Source: Leptolyngbyaceae cyanobacterium (GTDB lineage: Bacteria; Cyanobacteriota; Cyanobacteriia; Phormidesmidales; Phormidesmidaceae). Taken from it: DNA of 64,000 nucleotides. The notes beneath the pieces were generated by a model, which ran no database searches, was not told the DNA's origin, and saw only the letters and a list, made by a program, of their open reading frames with translations. The position numbers and the translations under genes are program-made. Shown here in pieces: positions 2,322 through 48,456 of the stretch. The stretch lies in the NCBI GenBank assembly GCA_965263355.1, contig CBDHHL010000056.1, positions 608,001-672,000 of the forward strand. The letters run 5' to 3'. How positions within the stretch are numbered: position 1 is the first letter of the stretch; each line of letters opens with the position of its first letter.

Positions 2322-5300
2322 CTACACAAACGTAAACTGTTGACTATTATTCAAGTTCAGACTAGATGCATTAACTCCTTCAACGACACCAATCAAGTCA
2401 CCTGAGAAGCTAATACCTGCACTGATAACGCCATTAAGTGTCACATTAGAGATAAAGTAATCCGTAGCACTCCCTACCAGCTGAATGGTGTCAACAATAT
2501 CACCTGGAACATCAAATATGTCGAAGTCTGTAATAATGGCATAATCTAGATTGCCAAAATCATTGTAGAAGACTTCGCCAAGGCCGCCTTGCCGCTCACC
2601 CAAAACAAATATATCTTGGTCGTTGATATTCCCACTTGTGAGCGTATCAATTTCGCCACTTCCCCCTGCAACAAAGCTAGTACCATTTAGAACATCATTA
2701 CCAGATCCACCATTGATTAGGTCATTGCCTGCCCCACCGAAGATGAAGTCATTACCACCTAGACCATTCAGTAAATCATCGCCGTCTTGACCATCGAGGA
2801 CATTGCTACCACTGTTACCGATAATTGTGTCACTGACTTGGGTGCCGATCACTTGCTCAGTATTAATGATCGTAGTCGTGCCTCCAAAGCCTGTAAAGGT
2901 GTCAGCGGATAGGTCAATGGAGACTGCTTCGGAGAAGGTAACAATTGAACTCAGGTCAAGGGTGTCAAACCCACTGCCACCATTGACGTTGTCAATAAAC
3001 TCGCCATCATTGATAACAATGGTGTCATTTCCACCACCACCGTTAACAAAGTCTTCGTCCAGCCCCCCACTCAGGGTGTCATTACCGGCACCTCCATTAA
3101 TCGTATCGATGCCAATACCACCGGCAATCAGGTCGTTTCCACCCTGACCATCGAGAACATTGTCGGCATTACTGCCCACAATGGTGTCACTGACTTGAGT
3201 ACCGATCACTTGTTCAGTATTAATGATTGTGGTCGTGCCCCCAAAGCCTGTGAAGGTGTCATTGGATAGGTCAATGGAGACCGCTTCAGCAGGCGTAACA
3301 ATTAAACTCAGATCAAGGGTGTCAAACCCATTACCCCCATTGACGTTGTCAATAAACTCACCATCATTGATAACAATGGTGTCATCTCCACTGCCGCCAT
3401 TGACAAAGTCTTCGTCCAGTCCCCCATTGAGGGTGTCATTACCGGCCCCCCCATTAATGGTATCGATACCAATACCACCGACAATCAGGTCGTTTCCACC
3501 CTGACCATCCAATAAGTCATCACCATCTTGACCATCGAGGATATTGTCGGCATTATCGCCCACAATGGTGTCATTAACTTGGGTACCGATTACTTGCTCA
3601 GTATTAATGATTGTGGTTGTACCCCCAAAGCCTGTGAAGGTGTCAGTGGACAGGTCAATGGAGACCGCTTCAGAGAAGGTGACAATTGAACTCAGATCAA
3701 GGGTGTCAAACCCGCTGCCGCCATTGACATTGTCAATAAACTCGCCATCATTGATAACAATGGTGTCATCTCCACTGCCGCCATTGACAAAGTCTTCGTC
3801 CAGTCCCCCATTGAGGGTGTCATTACCGGCCCCCCCATTAATGGTATCGATACCAATACCACCGACAATCAGGTCGTTTCCACCCTGACCATCCAGTAAG
3901 TCATCACCATTTTGACCATCGAGGATATTGTCGGCATTATCGCCCACAATGGTGTCACTAACTTGGGTACCAATGACTTGCTCAATGTTAGTAATCGTGG
4001 TTGTGCCTCCAAAGCCTGTGAAGCTATTGGTGGACAGGTTAATGGAGACTGCTTCAGCAGGCGTAACAATTGAACTCAGATCAAGGGTGTCAAACCCACT
4101 GCCGCCATTGACGTTGTCGATAAACTCGCCATCATTAATAACAATGGTGTCATCTCCACCACCACCGTTGACAAAGTCTTCATCTAGACCTCCATTCAGG
4201 GTGTCATTACCGGCCCCTCCATTAATCGTGTCGATGCCAATACCACCCGCGATCAGGTCGTTTCCACCCTGACCGTCGAGGACATTGTCGGCATCATCGC
4301 CCACAATGGTGTCACTAACTTGGGTACCAATGACTTGCTCAATATTCGTAATCGTGGTCGTGCCCCCAAAGCCTGTAAAGCTATTGGTGAATAGGTCAAT
4401 GGAGACCGCTTCAGCAGGCGTAACAATTAATCGTGGTACCAATGACTTGCTCAATATTCGTAATTGTCTGTGAAGCTATTGGTGGTCAAGGGTGTCAAAC
4501 CCACTGCCGCCATTGACGTTGTCAATAAACTCGCCATCATTGATAACAATGGTGTCATCTCCACCGCCACCGTTGACAAAGTCTTCGTCCAGTCCTCCAT
4601 TCAGGGTGTCATTACCGGCCCCCCCGTTAATCGTGTCGATGCCAATACCACCCGCGATTAGGTCGTTTCCACCCTGACCGTCGAGGACATTGTCGGCATC
4701 ATCGCCCACAATGGTGTCACTAACTTGGGTACCAATGACTTGCTCAATATTCGTAATCGTGGTCGTGCCCCCAAAGCCTGTGAAGCTATTGGTGGACAGG
4801 TTAATGGAGACTGCTTCAGAGAAGGTGACAATTGAACTTAGATCAAGGGTGTCAAATCCACTGCCGCCATTGACGTTGTCAATAAACTCGCCATCATTGA
4901 TAACAATGGTGTCATCTCCACTGCCGCCATTGACAAAGTCTTCATCTAGACCTCCACTCAGGGTGTCATTACCAGCACCTCCATTAATCGTGTCGATGCC
5001 AATACCACCCGCGATTAGGTCGTTTCCACCCTGACCGTCGAGGACATTGTCGGCATCATCGCCCACAATGGTGTCACTAACTTGGGTACCAATGACTTGC
5101 TCAATATTCGTAATCGTGGTCGTGCCCCCAAAGCCTGTGAAGCTATTGGTGGACAGGTTAATGGAGACTGCTTCAGAGAAGGTGACAATTGAACTTAGAT
5201 CAAGGGTGTCAAATCCACTGCCGCCATTGACGTTGTCAATAAACTCGCCATCATTGATAACAATGGTGTCATCTCCACTGCCGCCATTGACAAAGTCTTC

Positions 5301-6884
5301 ATCTAGACCTCCACTCAGGGTGTCATTACCAGCACCTCCATTAATCGTGTCGATGCCAATACCACCCGCGATCAGGTCATTTCCACCCTGACCGTCGAGG
5401 ACATTGTCGGCATCATCGCCCACAATGGTGTCACTGACTTGGGTACCAATGACTTGCTCAATATTCGTAATCGTGGTCGTGCCCCCAAAGCCTGTAAAGC
5501 TATTGGTGAATAGGTCAATGGAGACCGCTTCAGCAGGCGTAACAATTAAACTCAGATCAAGGGTGTCAAACCCACTGCCGCCATTGACGTTGTCAATAAA
5601 CTCGCCATCATTGATAACAATGGTGTCATCTCCACTGCCACCGTTGACAAAGTCTTCGTCCAGTCCTCCATTCAGGGTGTCATTACCGGCACCCCCGTTA
5701 ATCGTGTCGATGCCAATACCACCCGCGATTAGGTCATTTCCACCCTGACCGTCGAGGACATTGTCGGCATCATCGCCCACAATGGTGTCACTGACTTGGG
5801 TACCAATGACTTGCTCAATATTCGTAATCGTGGTCGTGCCCCCAAAGCCTGTGAAGCTATTGGTGAATAGGTCAATGGAGACCGCTTCAGCAGGCGTAAC
5901 AATTAAACTCAGATCAAGGGTGTCAAACCCACTGCCGCCATTGACGTTGTCAATAAACTCGCCATCATTAATAACAATGGTGTCATCTCCACTGCCGCCA
6001 TTGACAAAGTCTTCGTCCAGTCCTCCATTCAGGGTGTCATTACCGGCCCCTCCATTAATCGTGTCGATGCCAATACCACCCGCGATTAGGTCATTTCCAC
6101 CCTGACCGTCGAGGACATTGTCGGCATCATCGCCCACAATGGTGTCACTAACTTGGGTACCAATGACTTGCTCAATGTTAGTAATCGTGGTTGTGCCCCC
6201 AAAGCCTGTGAAGCTATTGGTGGATAGGTCAATGGAGACTGCTTCAGAGAAGGTGACAATTGAACTTAGATCAAGGGTGTCAAATCCACTGCCGCCATTG
6301 ACGTTGTCAATAAATTCGCCATCATTGATAACAATGGTGTCATCTCCACCGCCACCGTTGACAAAGTCTTCATCCAGTCCCCCATTCAGGGTGTCATTAC
6401 CGGCACCTCCATTAATCGTGTCGATGCCAATACCACCCGCGATTAGGTCGTTTCCATCTTGACCATCAAGGACATTGTCAGCATTATCGCCAATGAGCGT
6501 ATCATTGCCTTGAGTCCCAACGACTTGTTCAATCCCAGCTATGACTGTCGTACCCCCTAAGCCTGTAAAGGTACCAATAGATAGGTCGACAAAAACGGCT
6601 TCAGAGGAATTCACAATTGGGCTCAGGATGAGACTGTCAAATCCAGTACCGCCATCAACGTTGTCAATAAATTCACCATTGTTTATCAAGATGATGTCAT
6701 CCCCGGCACCACCGATAACAGTATCAACGTCAAAGCCACCAGCAATTGTGTCGTTTCCGGAATTACCGTTAATTAGGTCAAAACCAATGCCACCTAAAAT
6801 GAAATCGTTACCGCCTTGGCCATTGATTTCATTATCATTACTATCGCCAATAAGGAGATCATTCAATTCAGTCCCTGTTGTCAT
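2322..6884 (-). CDS. Large RTX/hemolysin-type Ca2+-binding repeat protein, interrupted by one in-frame stop at 4476-4478
   Basis: GGxGxDxLxG nonapeptides in ~119-aa units. ORFs 4476..6884 and 2322..4454 are in the same frame. C-terminus (...LNLNNSQQFTFV) resembles type I secreted cyanobacterial RTX proteins. Confidence 0.85.
2790..6700. repeat. Intragenic tandem repeat, about 11-12 units of 357 bp (some 384 bp)
   Basis: Near-identical blocks; antisense ORFs recur at 4690, 5047, 5404, 5761 and 6118 (357-bp spacing). Confidence 0.9.
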
Positions 6885-39737: not shown

Positions 39738-42611
39738 TTAATCAGATGCACTAGACACCGTATCGGTGCTAGAGACTGAATCTGTGGTGCTAGGCATTGA
39801 GATTGCCTTAGTTGAAACCATCGCCTGCAATTCATCTAAAAGCTCTTGACGATTTAGATCGGCCTTTTGATACACCCGTGCTACACCTTCTAGCTGTTGC
39901 TGATCGCTGACTGTTAATGCCTTCGCTGTCACCACAATGACCGGTATATCCTGCCAATCAGAGTTTTGCCTCAGCACTTGAATAAACTCAAACCCATCCA
40001 TTTCAGGCATCATTAAATCCAGTACAATTAGGTTAGGCCGCTTATTATTCAGGTATTGCAATGCTTCCCGTCCATTGGATGCCAGTTCAACAGTCCAGTC
40101 TTGTCGCTGCAAGAAGCGTCCCATTATCTCTCTTGCATTCACATCATCTTCTACCACTAGAATGGTAGGAGAAACTTGGTTTGCAAGGTGAGTCTCTAAA
40201 ACACTTATCAAACGCTTACGATCAATTGGCTTCGTTAGATAGTCAGCCGCCCCTAAGCTATGTCCCGTAGGACGATCATCTACAATGGACAAGAGGATAA
40301 CTGGAATTTCAGCAACAACTGGCATTTCTTTGAGTTGCCTTAGTACTGACCAGCCATCCATTTGTGGCATCATCACATCCAGCGTAATAGCATCGGGCAA
40401 GATTTCACCTGCTAGGGCCAACCCCTGCTCACCACTAGCGGCACAAACCACCTCATAGCCAGCCTCATCGAGGGAGCGACGTAAAATTTCGCGAGCATCA
40501 TCGTCATCGTCAATCACCAAAACTGTCTGTCTTGACGACTTATGGATTGGAATACTCTTCGGTTCAGTGGGCTCACTGTCGGTAGCGGATAAGGGAGGGG
40601 CAAAAAAGGCTTTACCTCTTGGATTAGTCGCCCGTACTACTTGTGGAATCACTAGCGAAAATGTAGTGCCTTGTCCATGGGTACTTTCTACGGAGATATC
40701 ACCACCCATCATGTTGATAAACTGTTTAGTAATCGCTAGTCCCAAACCTGTGCCACCATATTTACGGGTAGTAGACGCATCGGCTTGGGTAAATGCATCA
40801 AAAATCTTCTCTATTTGATCATCTTTCATGCCAATGCCCGTATCGCTGACGATAAAACGGAACCAATCTCCGTCGTGTACGGAACTATCAATAGTAGGAA
40901 TTTGTTCAACTGTTAAGGTGATATTTCCATCTTCGGTAAATTTGCAAGCATTACTCAGCAGATTAAACAAGCTTTGCCGTAGCTTTGTTTGATCGGCGTG
41001 GAGTTTGCCAATATCATCAGGACAGAAAATGGACAGATGATTGTTATTTTTATGGGCAACAGGAACAATTGTGCCAGAGATTTCCTCTACCATTTCTCTA
41101 ATGGAGAAGTCCTCCAAAAACAGCTCCATGCGTCCCGCCTCAATCTTAGACAGATCGAGTACTGAATTAATTAATCCCAGCAAATGTTTACCTGCGCCTT
41201 GAATTTTTTGAAGGTCAGGGATAAAGTCATCTTCTCCGACATCAGTTGCTTCTTCTTCCAACATTTCGCTGTAACCAATAATTGCATTCAGCGGTGTGCG
41301 CAACTCATGACTCATGTTGGCTAAAAATTCACTTTTAGATCGATTTGCATCTTCTGCCTTGACCCTTGCTTCTTCAGCCTCTTCCATGGCTTTCATAAGT
41401 TTGGTCGTCCGATCTTGCACACGACTATCCAAATCGCGATTTAATTCCATTAACTGTTCTTCAGCCTGTTTACGTTCAGTGATATCCTGCAAAAATAAAG
41501 ATAATCCATCACGGCCAGGATATCCTCTTACCTGCAACCATCGCTGTGTGGGGGCATAGTAGGTTTCGAAACTGACGACCGTTTGCTCAGCCATAGCTCG
41601 ACGATATTGTTGCTCATAGCGAGCCCCTAAGGATTCAGGGAAAATTTTCCAGAAGTCTTGATCCAAGAGGCCCTGAATGCTACGTTTAAGTACTTCTGCC
41701 GCCTGTGCATTGACATAGGTCACCTTCCAACCTCGATCAACAGCAACAAAAGCATCGGTAATATTTTCCAGAACGCTGGTGGTACGTTGACTAGACTGAC
41801 GTAACCGGGCGATCAAACTATAGGCAATTATAATAATGATTACTAAAACAACCAATGAGGCTGCATATCTATATATGACAACCTTTGTAAACGCTTCTCG
41901 GCTCGACTGATCAAAGGTAGCTTCTAGCTCACGAATATTAGTCGTTAGGGGTAAATTGACGACTTGATCCAACAGTGCATCAGCGGACGGCTTATTGTCT
42001 AGGACTGTTTGAGTCAGCTGGACTACCTGGTCTACATCTTCTGAACTAGAAAACTCACCCGAATTGAGTTTAGACTTAACCGTATTTAATTCCTGTTCGA
42101 TTGTAGTCACCAATTGTTCATCGGTGGCCATGATGTAAATCAAAACATCGTCGATTAATCGTTCAAGGTCTGCATCACTAGTATTCTTGAGCTTATTGAC
42201 TAATCCAGGTAATTGGATTAAAGCTTTTTGTAGCTCTGCATTATTCGCCTGAAATTGTTTAACCAGTTTAGTTTTTTCTTCTAAAAGCTGAGCGTCTCGA
42301 TTGATCAGACTTTGCAACTTTGTCCGATCATCTTCTACTACAAAACTGGGTATTTTTTCTGCTAAATCTTGCTGAATAGCAAGCTCCTCAGCCAGGGCTT
42401 CTTCCAGTGGCTCATCATTTCTTAGGAGTGTGTAGCGTTCTTTCAGTAGTGCTAGCTCAACCTCTGTATCACTTTGTACTTGGTTGGCGATTAAATCTGC
42501 ATATTCTTGATATCGGTTAACATCAACAGACTTTCCTTTAATCCCTAAAAATAAGAGGAGGATAAAAGCTGCGGCTACACCTGCTCCTTTAGATAAAGAG
42601 TCTTGATTCAC
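39738..42611 (-). CDS. Hybrid sensor histidine kinase (helical extracytoplasmic sensor, PAS, HisKA, HATPase, 2xREC)
   Basis: [36 protein letters not shown]; two REC domains; GTG start with GGAGG RBS. Confidence 0.93.
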   Translation of the reverse strand: MNQDSLSKGAGVAAAFILLLFLGIKGKSVDVNRYQEYADLIANQVQSDTEVELALLKERYTLLRNDEPLEEALAEELAIQQDLAEKIPSFVVEDDRTKLQSLINRDAQLLEEKTKLVKQFQANNAELQKALIQLPGLVNKLKNTSDADLERLIDDVLIYIMATDEQLVTTIEQELNTVKSKLNSGEFSSSEDVDQVVQLTQTVLDNKPSADALLDQVVNLPLTTNIRELEATFDQSSREAFTKVVIYRYAASLVVLVIIIIIAYSLIARLRQSSQRTTSVLENITDAFVAVDRGWKVTYVNAQAAEVLKRSIQGLLDQDFWKIFPESLGARYEQQYRRAMAEQTVVSFETYYAPTQRWLQVRGYPGRDGLSLFLQDITERKQAEEQLMELNRDLDSRVQDRTTKLMKAMEEAEEARVKAEDANRSKSEFLANMSHELRTPLNAIIGYSEMLEEEATDVGEDDFIPDLQKIQGAGKHLLGLINSVLDLSKIEAGRMELFLEDFSIREMVEEISGTIVPVAHKNNNHLSIFCPDDIGKLHADQTKLRQSLFNLLSNACKFTEDGNITLTVEQIPTIDSSVHDGDWFRFIVSDTGIGMKDDQIEKIFDAFTQADASTTRKYGGTGLGLAITKQFINMMGGDISVESTHGQGTTFSLVIPQVVRATNPRGKAFFAPPLSATDSEPTEPKSIPIHKSSRQTVLVIDDDDDAREILRRSLDEAGYEVVCAASGEQGLALAGEILPDAITLDVMMPQMDGWSVLRQLKEMPVVAEIPVILLSIVDDRPTGHSLGAADYLTKPIDRKRLISVLETHLANQVSPTILVVEDDVNAREIMGRFLQRQDWTVELASNGREALQYLNNKRPNLIVLDLMMPEMDGFEFIQVLRQNSDWQDIPVIVVTAKALTVSDQQQLEGVARVYQKADLNRQELLDELQAMVSTKAISMPSTTDSVSSTDTVSSASD

Positions 42612-43175: not shown

Positions 43176-45989
43176 TCATCCAGCTACTGGGGTTCTATTA
43201 GCCTCGGTAAAGGCAAGGGTGCGAACTTCATCCAGCAGCTCCTGACGATCAAAATCTGCTTTTTGATACACTCGCACAACACCCTTTAAACGCTGCTGAT
43301 CTTTGGCAGTAAGTGTTTTGGCGGTCACTATAATAATCGGAATATTTCTCCAGTCTGGCGTTTGACGTAAAATTTCGACAAATTCAAAGCCGTCCATTCC
43401 AGGCATCATCAGATCTAGAACAATCAACTGGGGAATAGAGTTTTTAATATAGTCCAGAGCTTGCTGACCATTGGCTGCCAGCACAACAGTCCAGTCATGT
43501 TGCTGTAAGAGCCGTCCCATGATTTCTCTAGCATTGACATCATCCTCAACCACCAGAATTTTAGGTTTGGTTGACACATGAAGTCGGGACTCTAAGGTAT
43601 CGAGTAGGCGAATGTGATCAATGGGTTTAAGCAGGTAGTCAGTAACCCATAACTGATGTGCAAGGCTAGGCTCTTCAGTCATCGATAGTAAAATAATAGG
43701 TATTTGGGAGACTGCTGGCATAGCCTTAAGTTCTTGCAGAACTGTCCCTCCATTTTGGTTAGATAACGCCATATCCAAAATGATTGCGTCGGGCAGTAGC
43801 TCATCAGCTAGCACCAATCCTTGCTGCCCATCAACAGCACATGCAACGTTGTAACCGGCATCTGACAAACAGTTGTGCAGGTTTTCACAAGCCTCTGTGT
43901 CATTGTCAATGACCAATATTGTTTGTTCTAACTTTCGACCCGGAATTTCATGAATTGTCGAAATAGGTTCTCTTTCAAGCAAGCGGACAGGAGGGGCAAA
44001 GAATGTTTGATTAGATGATCTGTCCACTTGGACTGTACGAGGCAGGGTAAGGGTAAACGTTGTTCCTTGACCGTAGGTACTGTCTACGGTTACGTCTCCT
44101 CCCATCATAGAAATAAATTGTTTGGTGATTGTTAGGCCTAAACCAGTGCCACCATACTTGCGGGTAGTTGAGGTATCTGCTTGGGTAAACGCCTGAAAAA
44201 CTTTCCCCATTTGATCAGGCGTCATACCAATACCGGTGTCCGTAACTGAAAATTTCACCCAGCTGTCTTTATGTACTTGATGATTGGACTGTTCAACCGT
44301 CAGTGTAATTTTTCCGTTTTCAGTAAACTTGCAGGCATTGCTGAGTAGATTGATCAAGCTTTGCCGGAGTTTAACTTGGTCTGCGTACAGGATGCCAATA
44401 TCGCCAGGACAAGCCAACGATAGTTGATTGCCATTTTTCTGGGCTAAGGGGTGAATAGTGCCGATAATCTCATCAAGTATGGTTTGAATGCAAATATCTT
44501 CTAGGAAAAGTTCCATGCGACCTGCCTCGATTTTGGATAAATCAAGGACTGAGTTAATAAGTCCTAAAAGGTGCTTCCCTGCACCTTGAATTTTTTGTAA
44601 GTCAGGAACAAACTCCTCTTCACCAATACTAGTGATGTCTTCTTCCAGCATTTCGCTGTAGCCAATGATGGCATTTAGTGGCGTACGTAGTTCATGACTC
44701 ATATTGGCCAGAAACTCACTTTTAGACCGGTTAGCATCTTCTGCTTTGACCCGTGCAGTTTCTGCTTCTTCCATGGCACTGGCTAGTTGAGCGGTGCGGT
44801 CTTTTACCCGGCTATCTAGATCGCGATTGAGTTCAATTAGCTGTTCTTCAGCTTGTTTGCGCTCCGTAAAGTCCTGTAAAAAGATTGATAAGCCATCGGT
44901 TCCAGGGTAGCCGCGTACCATTAACCAGCGTGCAGTCGGTTCGTAATAGGTTTCAAAGCTAACGACTTGTAGATTTGTGGCAACAGCTTGACGATAGTAT
45001 TCGGTAAAGCGTTTGCCAAGAGATGCGGGTAAAACCTGCCAAAAATCCTGTCCCAATAGCCTTGGAAGCTCGTATTTGAGAATATCAGCAGCCTGAGCGT
45101 TGACATAGGTAATTGACCATTTGCGATCAACTGCAATAAAGGCGTCAGTGATACTTTCCAGTACTCTAACGGTTTTCTGCCTGGATTGCTGTAGGCGATT
45201 GATCACCCAAAAGGCAACTGTGCACAGACTGACAAGGGTCAATATATAGATAAGGTTTCGATATAGAGCAGTTCTTGTACGTGTAGCTTGCTGGATGTCG
45301 TCAAACTGCTGTTCTAAGGCTCGAATATTATTAGTCAGTGGTAAATCAAATACTTGGGTAACCAGCTTATCCGCAATGGGTTTGTTATCTAAAACCAGTT
45401 GTGTTAGCTGAGTTATTTGACGTTGTGTTGATGAACTGGCCTCAAGTTTTTGGTTAAGACGATTGAGCTTTGTTTTTATACTGACCACCAGCTTGTCATC
45501 ACCGGTTACGGCATAAAGGGACAAGTCGTCTACCAAGGCTTCAACCTCAAGCTGAAGATTGCCACTTAGTCCATTGAGTAGATTAGCTTCTTGGGCTAAT
45601 GCCGCTCTCAATTCAGCATGGTGAATTTCAAGTTGTTCAATGAGTTGTCGCTTTTCAGCTAGAAGTTCAGCATTAAAGGCCAGTTGTTTTTGTAAACGGC
45701 TTTTATTTTTTTCCGATACTGAAATGGGAATTTGCTCGGTGAGTTTCACTTGCACTTTTTCGGCGTCAAGTAAAGCTACGTTCAAGGATTGACCGTTTTG
45801 TGAGATGGTGTAGCGGATATTTTGTAGCGCTAGTTGAGTTGCTGCTTCGTCAACAAGCTGATCGGAAATCAATGCACTGTAGCTACGATACTGATCAAAA
45901 TCAACAGCAATGTTTTTAAGACCTAAAATTGATAGGACTGAGAGTGTAGCGACAGCAGGTATACCCTTTAAAAAGTGCTTTCGTCTCAC
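43176..45989 (-). CDS. Hybrid sensor histidine kinase, tandem paralogue of 39738..42611
   Basis: Same architecture and near-identical H-box; GTG start with AGGAG RBS. Confidence 0.93.
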
Positions 45990-46453: not shown

Positions 46454-47317
46454 TTAGGCAACTGGGTCAAGGGAATGTTGTGCCCTAACGTTGCGACCAA
46501 TAGCCTGAGCAATGGGCGCTAAACTGTCTATGAGTTTGGCCATGGCCTCTAAGCTAATGGTTTGTCTGGCATCACTTACGGACTTATCTGGTTCTGGATG
46601 GCATTCAATGATTAATCCATCAGCTCCAGCTGCGATCGCAGCCCGAGCTAAGGCTGCAACCAGTTCTCGCTTACCGGTTGCATGGCTAGGATCAACCAGC
46701 ACGGGCAAGTGGATAATTTGCTTAAGGGCGACTACAGCACCGAGGTCTAACACATTGCGAGTATGAGTATCAAAGCTACGAATACCGCGTTCACACAGAA
46801 TAATATTGGGATTACCGTGGCTGGCAATATATTCTGCTGCCATAACAAACTCAGTTACCGTTGCCGCTAACCCTCGCTTGAGCAAAATGGGTTTATCCAC
46901 CTCACCCAAGGCCTTAAGTAAGTCAAAATTTTGCATATTGCGGCTGCCCACTTGTAGTACATCAGCATGGGGCATTAGCTTTTCGATCTGATGGATGGCC
47001 ATGACTTCAGTAACTACGGGTAAACCATAGCGCTGACGGATGGCGGCAAGAATATCCAAGCCAACGTCACCCAGCCCCTGAAATGCGTAGGGGGACGTAC
47101 GCGGTTTATAAATCCCCCCGCGTACGCCCTGTATAGCTAGGTTGGCGTTAGCAATGGCTTCCATTTGAGCCATGCTCTCGATAGAACAGGGGCCACCCAC
47201 GATAAACAGGTCTTGGCCACCGACGGTGATGGCAGGGGTGTGCTGGGTGGCGGGTGCGATCTCAATTTCACTGATGTGGTCAGTGTGCTGTTTAGCAATC
47301 AGTTTGGCGTCCTTCAT
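46454..47317 (-). CDS. aroF: 3-deoxy-7-phosphoheptulonate (DAHP) synthase, type I-beta, catalytic domain only
   Basis: GGPCSIES, KPRTSPYAFQG, GSRNMQNF, LLKRG, LCERGIR, DPSH and SD motifs. True start MKDAKL at 47317; the longer ORF is read-through of the repeat. Confidence 0.95.
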   Translation of the reverse strand: MKDAKLIAKQHTDHISEIEIAPATQHTPAITVGGQDLFIVGGPCSIESMAQMEAIANANLAIQGVRGGIYKPRTSPYAFQGLGDVGLDILAAIRQRYGLPVVTEVMAIHQIEKLMPHADVLQVGSRNMQNFDLLKALGEVDKPILLKRGLAATVTEFVMAAEYIASHGNPNIILCERGIRSFDTHTRNVLDLGAVVALKQIIHLPVLVDPSHATGKRELVAALARAAIAAGADGLIIECHPEPDKSVSDARQTISLEAMAKLIDSLAPIAQAIGRNVRAQHSLDPVA

Positions 47318-47339: not shown

Positions 47340-47660
47340 AAACAAAAAGCCCACAGCTTTTTGGGTAAACAAAAAGCCCACAGCTTTTTGGGTAAACAAA
47401 AAGCCCACAGCTTTTTGGGTAAACAAAAAGCCCACAGCTTTTTGGGTAAACAAAAAGCCCACAGCTTTTTGGGTAAACAAAAAGCAGCTTTTTGGGTAAA
47501 CAAAAAGCCCGCAGCTTTTTGGGTAAACAAAAAGCCCACAGCTTTTTGGGTAAACAAAAAGCCCACAGCTTTTTGGGTAAACAAAAAGCCCACAGCTTTT
47601 TGGGTAAACAAAAAGCCCGCAGCTTTTTGGGTAAACAAAAAGCCCGCAGCTTTTTTGGGC
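47340..47660. repeat. Tandem array of twelve ~27-bp units aaacaaaaagccc(a/g)cagctttttgggt
   Basis: Counted 12 units with no spacers. Unit 47475-47497 lacks 4 nt, the last unit is 28 nt, and three units carry g in place of a. Confidence 0.95.
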
Positions 47661-47667
47661 TCCGGGC
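47633..47667 (-). terminator. Putative attenuator terminator 2
   Basis: Transcript GCCCG-g-AGC-ccaaaaaa-GCU-g-CGGGC-UUUUUGUUU; its 5' arm overlaps antiterminator arm ACUUGCCCGG. Confidence 0.7.
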
Positions 47668-47690
47668 AAGTCAGTACAGCAAAGCAAACG

Positions 47691-47753
47691 CTACCTACCC
47701 GGTGGTGGCGTAAAAAAGAAAAAAGTAAATTGCCAGCTGTAGCAGACGATCAT
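47691..47753 (-). CDS. Putative aromatic-amino-acid leader peptide 2 (MIVCYSWQFTFFFFTPPPGR)
   Basis: Manual translation: 7 of 20 residues are Phe/Tyr/Trp; lies directly upstream of terminator 2 and aroF. Confidence 0.78.
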   Translation of the reverse strand: MIVCYSWQFTFFFFTPPPGR

Positions 47754-47811
47754 GGCGGTCAATGAAAACGGTCAAAAGAGGTAATCAAAACGAAACCGGG
47801 TACTCACTGAT

Positions 47812-47844
47812 AAAACAAAACCGCAGAGCTTACACCCTGCGGTT
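47812..47844 (-). terminator. Putative attenuator terminator 1
   Basis: Transcript AACCGCAGGG-uguaag-CUCUGCGGUU-UUGUUUU: 10-bp stem with one G-U, then a U-tract. Confidence 0.82.
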
Positions 47845-47872
47845 CACCGGCTTCCCATGCTAGCGCTCGGGT

Positions 47873-47923
47873 TCATCGCCGGTGAACCTGACTAAACCAA
47901 AAGTAAAAAAATGAGTGCTGCAT
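47873..47923 (-). CDS. Putative aromatic-amino-acid leader peptide 1 (MQHSFFYFWFSQVHRR)
   Basis: Manual translation: six consecutive aromatic codons FFYFWF; the 3' end of the ORF contains antiterminator arm GGUUCACCGGC. Confidence 0.82.
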   Translation of the reverse strand: MQHSFFYFWFSQVHRR

Positions 47924-47965
47924 GGGATGAAAATTTTTGCTAGCAATAGCTATCTCTACGTTCGT

Positions 47966-47994
47966 ACCTTAACGTGTCAAATTTAAACCGTCAA
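47966..47994 (-). promoter_or_regulatory. Candidate sigma70-type promoter for the leader-aroF transcript
   Basis: TTGACG-17 nt-TAAGGT on the minus strand, about 40 nt upstream of leader 1. Confidence 0.45.
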
Positions 47995-48022
47995 CCTGTA
48001 GAAGCGTTGCGTACAATGCCCA

Positions 48023-48068
48023 AGATTTTTTGTAGAGGCGTTGCATGCAACGCCTCTACAAAAAATCT
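48023..48068. repeat. Perfect 46-bp palindrome, GTAG-type REP-like; likely ends ridA transcription
   Basis: agattttttgtagaggcgttgca|tgcaacgcctctacaaaaaatct; a degenerate half-copy tgtagaagcgttgc lies at 47997. Confidence 0.85.
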
Positions 48069-48456
48069 ATTTCACTGCGATACATTCAATTTCGACCAGT
48101 ACATCCTTAGGTAGGCGGGCTACCTCAACACAGGCCCGAGCGGGAGCTGTAGCGTCATCAAAGTAGGTTGCATAGATACCATTCATAGTGGCAAAGTCGT
48201 TCATATCCTTTAAGAAAACAGATGTTTTAACCACATTAGCCATGGTGGCTCCCGCTGCTGCCAATACGGCACTTAGATTCTCTAAGCACTGTTTGGTTTG
48301 AGCGGCGACATCACCGTCACCTACCAGGGCTCCACTACTGGGATCCAGGGCTACCTGTCCGGAAGCAAATACCATCTCCCCTGAGGCAATGACGGCCTGA
48401 TTGTAAGGCCCAACGGGGGCAGGAGCCTGATCAGTTTGGACAATGCGACGAACCAT
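48067..48456 (-). CDS. ridA: RidA/YjgF family enamine/imine deaminase
   Basis: APAPVGPYNQA, SGQVAL, PARACVEVARLP and VEIECIA motifs. Confidence 0.93.
   Translation of the reverse strand: MVRRIVQTDQAPAPVGPYNQAVIASGEMVFASGQVALDPSSGALVGDGDVAAQTKQCLENLSAVLAAAGATMANVVKTSVFLKDMNDFATMNGIYATYFDDATAPARACVEVARLPKDVLVEIECIAVK

Follow-up and report, generated by a model that had tools for sequence, protein, structure and literature searches.

In Escherichia coli, the leader attenuators trpL, pheL and pheST have a 1:2/2:3/3:4 layout. They are named in PMC11802643. The same source, summarising Neshat 2014, describes the aroR-aroF attenuator of Corynebacterium glutamicum, in which a Phe/Tyr leader precedes the gene for DAHP synthase (DAHP, 3-deoxy-D-arabinoheptulosonate 7-phosphate) and stalling raises transcription. 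The uORFC-13-1 motif upstream of aroF in Acholeplasma, according to the motif account in PMC8632094, contains a predicted upstream open reading frame (uORF) and comprises 24 sequences from Acholeplasma and unassigned environmental DNA. In Salmonella, the tandem attenuators mgtM and mgtP of mgtCBR sense two signals, ATP and proline (PMC3641672). The present analysis concerns attenuator 1, an element upstream of a DAHP synthase gene on the minus strand of a 64,000-nucleotide (nt) stretch from a Leptolyngbyaceae cyanobacterium (assembly GCA_965263355.1, contig CBDHHL010000056.1, positions 608,001 to 672,000; hereafter the window). This element is very probably a ribosome-mediated attenuator that senses charged tRNA-Phe, tRNA-Tyr and tRNA-Trp and is the first of two in series.

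The locus resembles the C. glutamicum system, as summarised in that source, in having an aromatic leader peptide upstream of a DAHP synthase gene. C. glutamicum has a single leader with Phe-Tyr-Phe and no Tyr response, whereas the leader described here contains five to seven aromatic codons including Trp and belongs to a pair of attenuators in series in another phylum; the two systems are likened by description, not by sequence. The likeness to uORFC-13-1, also one of description and not of sequence, consists of a predicted uORF whose Phe codon or codons lie within a run of U, followed by an intrinsic terminator ahead of a DAHP synthase gene; no tandem arrangement is described for that motif in the account cited. 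Control codons, a mutually exclusive antiterminator and terminator, and a decision made by ribosome position are features in common with trpL, pheL and pheST. Unlike the four-segment trp layout, the locus has no conserved 1:2 protector spanning its control codons, such a fold being dominant in 6 of 71 cases, and unlike in E. coli its antiterminator arm lies inside the open reading frame (ORF) and overlaps the base of the terminator only. Salmonella mgtCBR likewise has a leader that combines two short ORFs and their attenuators; unlike mgtM and mgtP, both leaders here carry the same three amino acids (Phe, Tyr and Trp).

According to PMC4833913, reliable data on cyanobacterial attenuation are lacking. 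The mechanism proposed here is classical, and no report of a cyanobacterial leader-peptide attenuator was found in the literature searched, although subscription journals and most supplements may hold one. None is mentioned in the portions available of PMC2965389, PMC11109978, PMC1173090, PMC7997468, PMC7858274 and PMC10287535.

Components and conservation of attenuator 1

The regulated gene (46454..47317, minus strand) encodes a type I-beta DAHP synthase of 287 amino acids that matches TIGR01361 above the cut-off and whose relatives in the PDB are DAHP synthases. The protein contains PF00793 and lacks the N-terminal ferredoxin-like domain PF18152, which mediates feedback inhibition and is carried by the long paralog L082. 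On the minus strand, the gene is preceded in order by leader 1, leader 2 with its own terminator, and a 27-nt tandem repeat.

Leader ORF 1 (47873..47923, minus strand) consists of 16 codons, MQHSFFYFWFSQVHRR-TGA, with its ATG at 47923 and its TGA at 47875-47873. Codons F5 to W9 are the control codons, and F10 is borderline. Arm A, the 5' arm of the antiterminator (47878..47888), lies within the last codons of the leader, and its partner, segment C (47841..47851), ends in 4-5 nt that also form the base of the 5' arm of the terminator. An inner hairpin (47854..47871), with a folding energy of -2 kcal/mol or lower in 75 of 80 sequences, occupies the antiterminator loop. Intrinsic terminator 1 (47812..47845) has a stem of 47845-47834 with 47829-47818 and a U tract at 47820-47812; its G-C part extends as far as 47821, with UUUUGUUUU after it. 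The 11 base pairs (bp) of perfect complementarity between arm A and segment C reported in an earlier note on this DNA were confirmed, 47888-47878 being the exact reverse complement of 47851-47841. The AACC overlap between antiterminator and terminator was likewise found and becomes 5 nt when the closing G-U pair is counted; the terminator stem is also present, with 11-12 pairs on folding rather than the 10 claimed. The two structures are mutually exclusive, as covariation supports, and share 4-5 nt, or 3 nt in some of the relatives.

Of 506 relatives, the best 80 were compared; one of these (L034) was dropped because it had just 102 nt of upstream DNA, so that counts out of 80 refer to the 79 relatives with a leader plus the window. 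Leader 1 was present in all 79 relatives with sufficient upstream DNA. The named relatives are cyanobacteria, the closest being of the Leptothoe/Leptolyngbya type. An in-frame ATG was found for leader 1 in 80/80 sequences, at variable distance, compared with 1/80 in each of the other frames. A block of F, Y and W codons was present in every leader, and all three amino acids occurred in 77/80.

The core of attenuator 1 is highly conserved, and its pairing covaries. In alignment A1, which contains 70 of the 80 sequences (10 near-duplicates left out), 95.4% of antiterminator cells are paired and 7 of the 11 pairs have changed on both sides; none of 500 shuffles reached the covariation score. On the enzyme tree, partners shared 27 changes, compared with 4-11 for slid pairs. 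The terminator is 98.4% paired, with compensatory changes in 5 of 10 pairs. In 68 of 70 sequences the codon preceding Val has G as its third base, although it encodes 11 different amino acids, and GTT is the only Val codon used. Since this G and the GTT make up the pairs shared with the base of the terminator, the short overlap is apparently under selection.

Simulations of 64 kb predicted 0.9 perfect inverted repeats of at least 11 bp and 1.5 aromatic-rich short ORFs by chance. The only two aromatic-rich short ORFs of the window both lie inside the DAHP synthase leader. The parts of the leader are singly not above chance, and their co-location and conservation exceed it. Contigs of three read sets from two samples (one possibly the source sample) match 47626-48052 with zero differences. 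Chance or an assembly artefact was rejected as an explanation of attenuator 1 on the basis of conservation and reads.

Ribosome position and the stop-codon hairpin

The effect of ribosome position was modelled by folding the transcript with the ribosome-covered part kept unpaired. When the U tract was kept out of the fold, to mimic its place in the polymerase hybrid, closure of the terminator's two lowest G-C pairs was 4-15% with the A site at F6-F8 and 97-100% from S11 on. Counted from the first base of the Trp codon, arm A starts 11 nt on in 70 of 79 distinct sequences; its start precedes the stop by 13 nt in 77 of 79. With the ribosome at Trp, the median modelled closure was 0.13, with values below 0.5 in 74 of 78 sequences; two of the four failures (L021 and L076) arose because a second, late Trp had been picked. 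With the ribosome at the stop, closure exceeded 0.9 in 79/79. In the model, which assumes a footprint length, the spacing fits a ribosome that frees the arm while on the control codons and covers it once beyond them.

The fixed arm spacing and the modelled closure at Trp compared with that at the stop place the decision point just past Trp. The proposal that a ribosome must reach UGA for the terminator to form was therefore abandoned, since the modelled switch flips once the A site passes codon 9-11, at Trp or just after. The stretch FFYFWF, put forward as the stalling site, was retained as control codons through Trp; because of the position of the flip, its last Phe is probably a weak sensor or none. 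A natural variant (L109, 1480-1600) has a premature stop at the codon before Val, which fits a decision point ahead of UGA. The core of the earlier model, in which stalling leaves the arm free for read-through and a covered arm allows the terminator to form, is supported by covariation, fixed spacing, gene context and masked folding. The doubt that a 4-nt overlap may be too small to switch the terminator applies to free RNA: with the U tract and arm A both free, the two lowest G-C pairs were still 36-56% closed, because the GGUU of arm A and that of the terminator swap at little cost. The doubt carries far less weight for a withheld U tract.

Segment B (47870..47875), which comprises the stop codon and 3 nt, pairs transiently with the 5' part of arm A in a candidate pause hairpin. 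The GGUUCA:UGAACC pairing proposed previously does form (47888-47883 with 47875-47870, -6.0 kcal/mol) and is conserved, but the outcome is not set by this third state, and pausing is a hypothesis. Pairing of -3 kcal/mol or lower was found in 50 of 55 distinct sequences, and its energy was largely lost on swapping the TGA. The leader 1 stop is TGA in 75/80 sequences versus 20/80 for leader 2, the latter tally including one invalid wrong-frame ORF in the row of the window itself. In L105 (1480-1600) the stop has been lost to TGG, and by eye the pairing is kept. Covariation of this helix did not exceed that of shuffles (54 of 500 reached its score).

With a stalled ribosome, the A:B helix was the main nascent fold in 65 of 71 cases. 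It would convert to the antiterminator over a barrier of about 2 kcal/mol after formation of the inner hairpin, which in the window takes the CC of segment B and thereby opens the A:B hairpin. The helix is not a protector, since it also arises when the ribosome is stalled and then gives way to the antiterminator. A role as a pause hairpin is plausible, though unproven. A pause consensus occurs 11-15 nt downstream of the A:B hairpin in 52/80 sequences, which is partly explained by inner-hairpin pairing. A classic 1:2 protector formed by the Trp-Phe codons and the stop segment was also considered and rejected, being dominant in 6 of 71 folds and showing no covariation. In the window itself the Trp-Phe codons could enter such a protector, with a barrier of about 14 kcal/mol.

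Each testable feature of classical attenuation was found at this locus. The sequence, its conservation and covariation, the gene context and the terminated transcript of a Nostoc homolog are observed; leader translation, stalling, amino-acid dependence and pausing are parts of the proposed model. Transcription would start near 47960, and a ribosome would load on the 16-codon leader. If it stalled at F5-W9, its leading edge would halt just before arm A, which would pair briefly with the stop segment, be freed by the inner hairpin and then form the 11-bp antiterminator. This helix would occupy the two lowest G-C pairs of the terminator, leaving only a 7-bp upper hairpin too distant from the U tract, and polymerase would read on. 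A ribosome one codon beyond Trp would instead cover the GG of arm A, allowing the terminator to close and to stop transcription near 47813.

Distribution, transcript evidence and rival explanations

In five genomes, leaders were found before 5/5 short and 0/5 long DAHP synthase genes (214 nt of upstream DNA being available for one long locus). The short, domain-less enzyme is the sole TIGR01361 match in three Leptolyngbya-type genomes (G001, G002 and G003; loci L083-L085), and two Nostocales genomes contain two or three long copies besides the short one. A covariance model of the element gave one match in each of at least 26 of 151 genomes of the phylum, a lower bound obtained with 27 candidates scored per genome. 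All 23 new loci contain an aromatic ATG frame, and 21 of them include a short DAHP synthase gene. Locus L116 (1480-1600) has a decayed terminator and no enzyme gene nearby. In L092 (1480-2000), another long ORF, which we take to be transposase-like, lies between attenuator 1 and the expected gene. Rfam gave no match over the gathering threshold in the window; the 13 weak matches to 47600-48100 at E values of up to 10 included no leader family, and a search of a plasmid collection gave no match.

A likely sigma70-type promoter was identified by motif position, with the -35 hexamer TTGACG at 47989..47994 and the -10 hexamer TAAGGT at 47966..47971 (minus strand). The pattern TTGAC-17/18-TANNNT occurs within 120 nt upstream of leader 1 in 75/80 sequences and in 0/70 control windows from coding sequences; no promoter motif was found between leader 1 and leader 2. 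A homologous transcript has been detected in Nostoc PCC 7120. The predicted small RNA (sRNA) 3692672f, of 150 nt, was validated by Northern analysis in a 2016 study (PMC4734099, supplement), in which all 14 RNAs tested had the predicted size according to its text. Compared by eye with the supplement entry, it matches attenuator 1 from start site to terminator 1, with aromatic codons, arm, inner hairpin and terminator as in the Nostoc loci of this analysis. The main text of PMC4734099 does not contain 'attenuat', 'leader', 'DAHP' or 'aromatic', and the 3692672f row carries no remark on a peptide. Row 174 of the supplement lists an antisense segment over leader 2 that ends at the same terminator. 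The Nostoc transcript supports promoter and terminator function, not regulation.

Several points weigh against the attenuator model. A Shine-Dalgarno-like motif was found in only 3/80 leaders, and the Nostoc PCC 7120 leader, judged by eye, has a GTG only and no in-frame ATG. The aligned sequences are kin, so that the counts overstate independent events. The folds are equilibrium folds only, and the switch codon depends on the footprint assumed, the modelled flip moving from codon 9 through 10 to 11 as the footprint is set to +15, +13 and +11. The near-isoenergetic exchange with a free U tract may result in leaky read-through. The deepest G of the overlap has been lost in seven modelled sequences (L009, L068, L107, L109, L110, L112 and L113) and likewise in L108; sequences without it block one G-C pair only (0.25-0.28 versus 0.97-0.98). 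Apart from L009 and L068, this loss belongs to a clade of five to six new loci.

The leader could sense general translation speed or ribosome loading under nitrogen, energy or darkness stress, its Phe codons serving mainly as a U-rich polymerase pause. This is improbable, although codon usage lends it some weight: UUU accounts for 243 of 263 leader-1 Phe codons (92%) and for 154 of 345 (45%) in the DAHP synthase genes, and position 47893, the first base of the second codon after Trp, is A in 63 of 70 sequences even though the amino acid varies. The UUU bias (window 47911-47894) could aid pausing or sharpen starvation sensing. Both Tyr codons are used, however (70 TAT and 75 TAC), and Trp is kept, which indicates that amino acids are conserved and not U alone; moreover, nearly all leaders contain all three pathway products (77/80), and the target is the first enzyme of the pathway. 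The start-site read count of 3692672f, 285 before and 1402 after nitrogen step-down (PMC4734099, supplement), is in keeping with general sensing but reflects the promoter, not read-through. Still less probable is that the 150-nt RNA is a trans-acting sRNA or a small-peptide gene with a constitutive terminator, DAHP synthase being expressed by leak-through or from another promoter. The catalogue for Nostoc PCC 7120 enters the RNA as an sRNA that has 27 homologs (PMC4734099, supplement), and the peptide motif FYFW-xxx-VH is strongly conserved. The VH is, however, explained by RNA pairing, no promoter motif separates the leaders, the element goes together with the short DAHP synthase, and such an RNA would not need a covarying antiterminator that overlaps the terminator base. 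An additional role in trans beside attenuation is possible.

The least probable of the alternatives is that a protein or small ligand drives the switch in a TRAP-like or riboswitch-like manner with the ORF incidental, or that the nascent peptide arrests the ribosome on a free amino acid, as TnaC does. The high conservation of the core and a conserved aromatic peptide whose Trp keeps a constant spacing to the stop would suit these readings. Against them stand the in-frame ATG kept at variable distance in 80/80 sequences, the lack of an Rfam family match in the window, and the pairing, which accounts for all conserved letters. Arrest at the control codons on a plentiful amino acid would switch biosynthesis on when it is not needed, and arrest at the stop would just reinforce termination. 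Sensing of charged aromatic tRNAs by a translating ribosome is the preferred explanation.

Second attenuator, neighbouring features and significance

The second attenuator contains leader ORF 2, MIVCYSWQFTFFFFTPPPGR-TAG (47691..47753, minus strand). Its RNA (47636..47702) has an arm at 47702-47693, a partner at 47671-47662 and a terminator stem at 47667-47642 with a U tract. The equilibrium model gave clean switching in just 30 of 79 sequences, a tally that likewise includes the wrong-frame ORF taken as leader 2 for the window. Leader 2 of Leptothoe-type loci ends in PPPGR-stop; 4 nt before this end another frame has a stop, which corresponds to the SG-stop ending seen elsewhere in cyanobacteria. 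A 27-nt unit repeated 11.9 times (47340..47655, minus strand) reproduces terminator 2 in part, namely its loop, 3' arm and U tract, each unit being a weak hairpin with a U run. The distance from the leader-2 stop to the gene is 373 nt in the window versus 74-87 nt in the close relatives L001-L016, where the repeat was not seen. Short high-depth contigs suggest that the repeat is multi-copy in the reads.

A Rid family hydrolase gene (ridA-like, 48456-48067, minus strand) lies upstream on the same strand; this neighbour was present in 15/15 close relatives checked and in 0/3 distant ones. Just past it is a palindromic element (48023-48068) with a 28-nt perfect core (48059-48032), which is a dispersed repeat because related copies occur on many other contigs from the same runs. 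Elsewhere in the window, 357/384-nt coding tandem repeats at 2823-6491 probably belong to a large repeat protein. Two divergent genes (39738-42611, minus strand, and 43176-45989, plus strand) encode paralogous hybrid histidine kinases of similar domain order, as judged from translation only.

Attenuation would stand in for feedback inhibition of an enzyme that has no allosteric domain and would explain how such a DAHP synthase is controlled. A broader proposal, held with slightly less than even confidence, is that many cyanobacteria have given up allosteric control of DAHP synthase in favour of two ribosome-sensing attenuators in tandem. In this proposal, attenuator 1 would be a minimal, protector-free design in which a one-codon advance beyond Trp releases two G-C pairs, and the U-rich codons together with the hairpin at the stop codon would act as a pause enforcing local transcription-translation coupling in a phylum without Rho. 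Cyanobacteria lack Rho according to PMC13613805, and attenuator 1 would offer a direct handle on transcription-translation coupling in them. The element is widespread and of simple, testable geometry, and its terminated transcript has already been detected in a model strain. The attenuator reading would also re-label the catalogued sRNA 3692672f and bears on the engineering of aromatic production.
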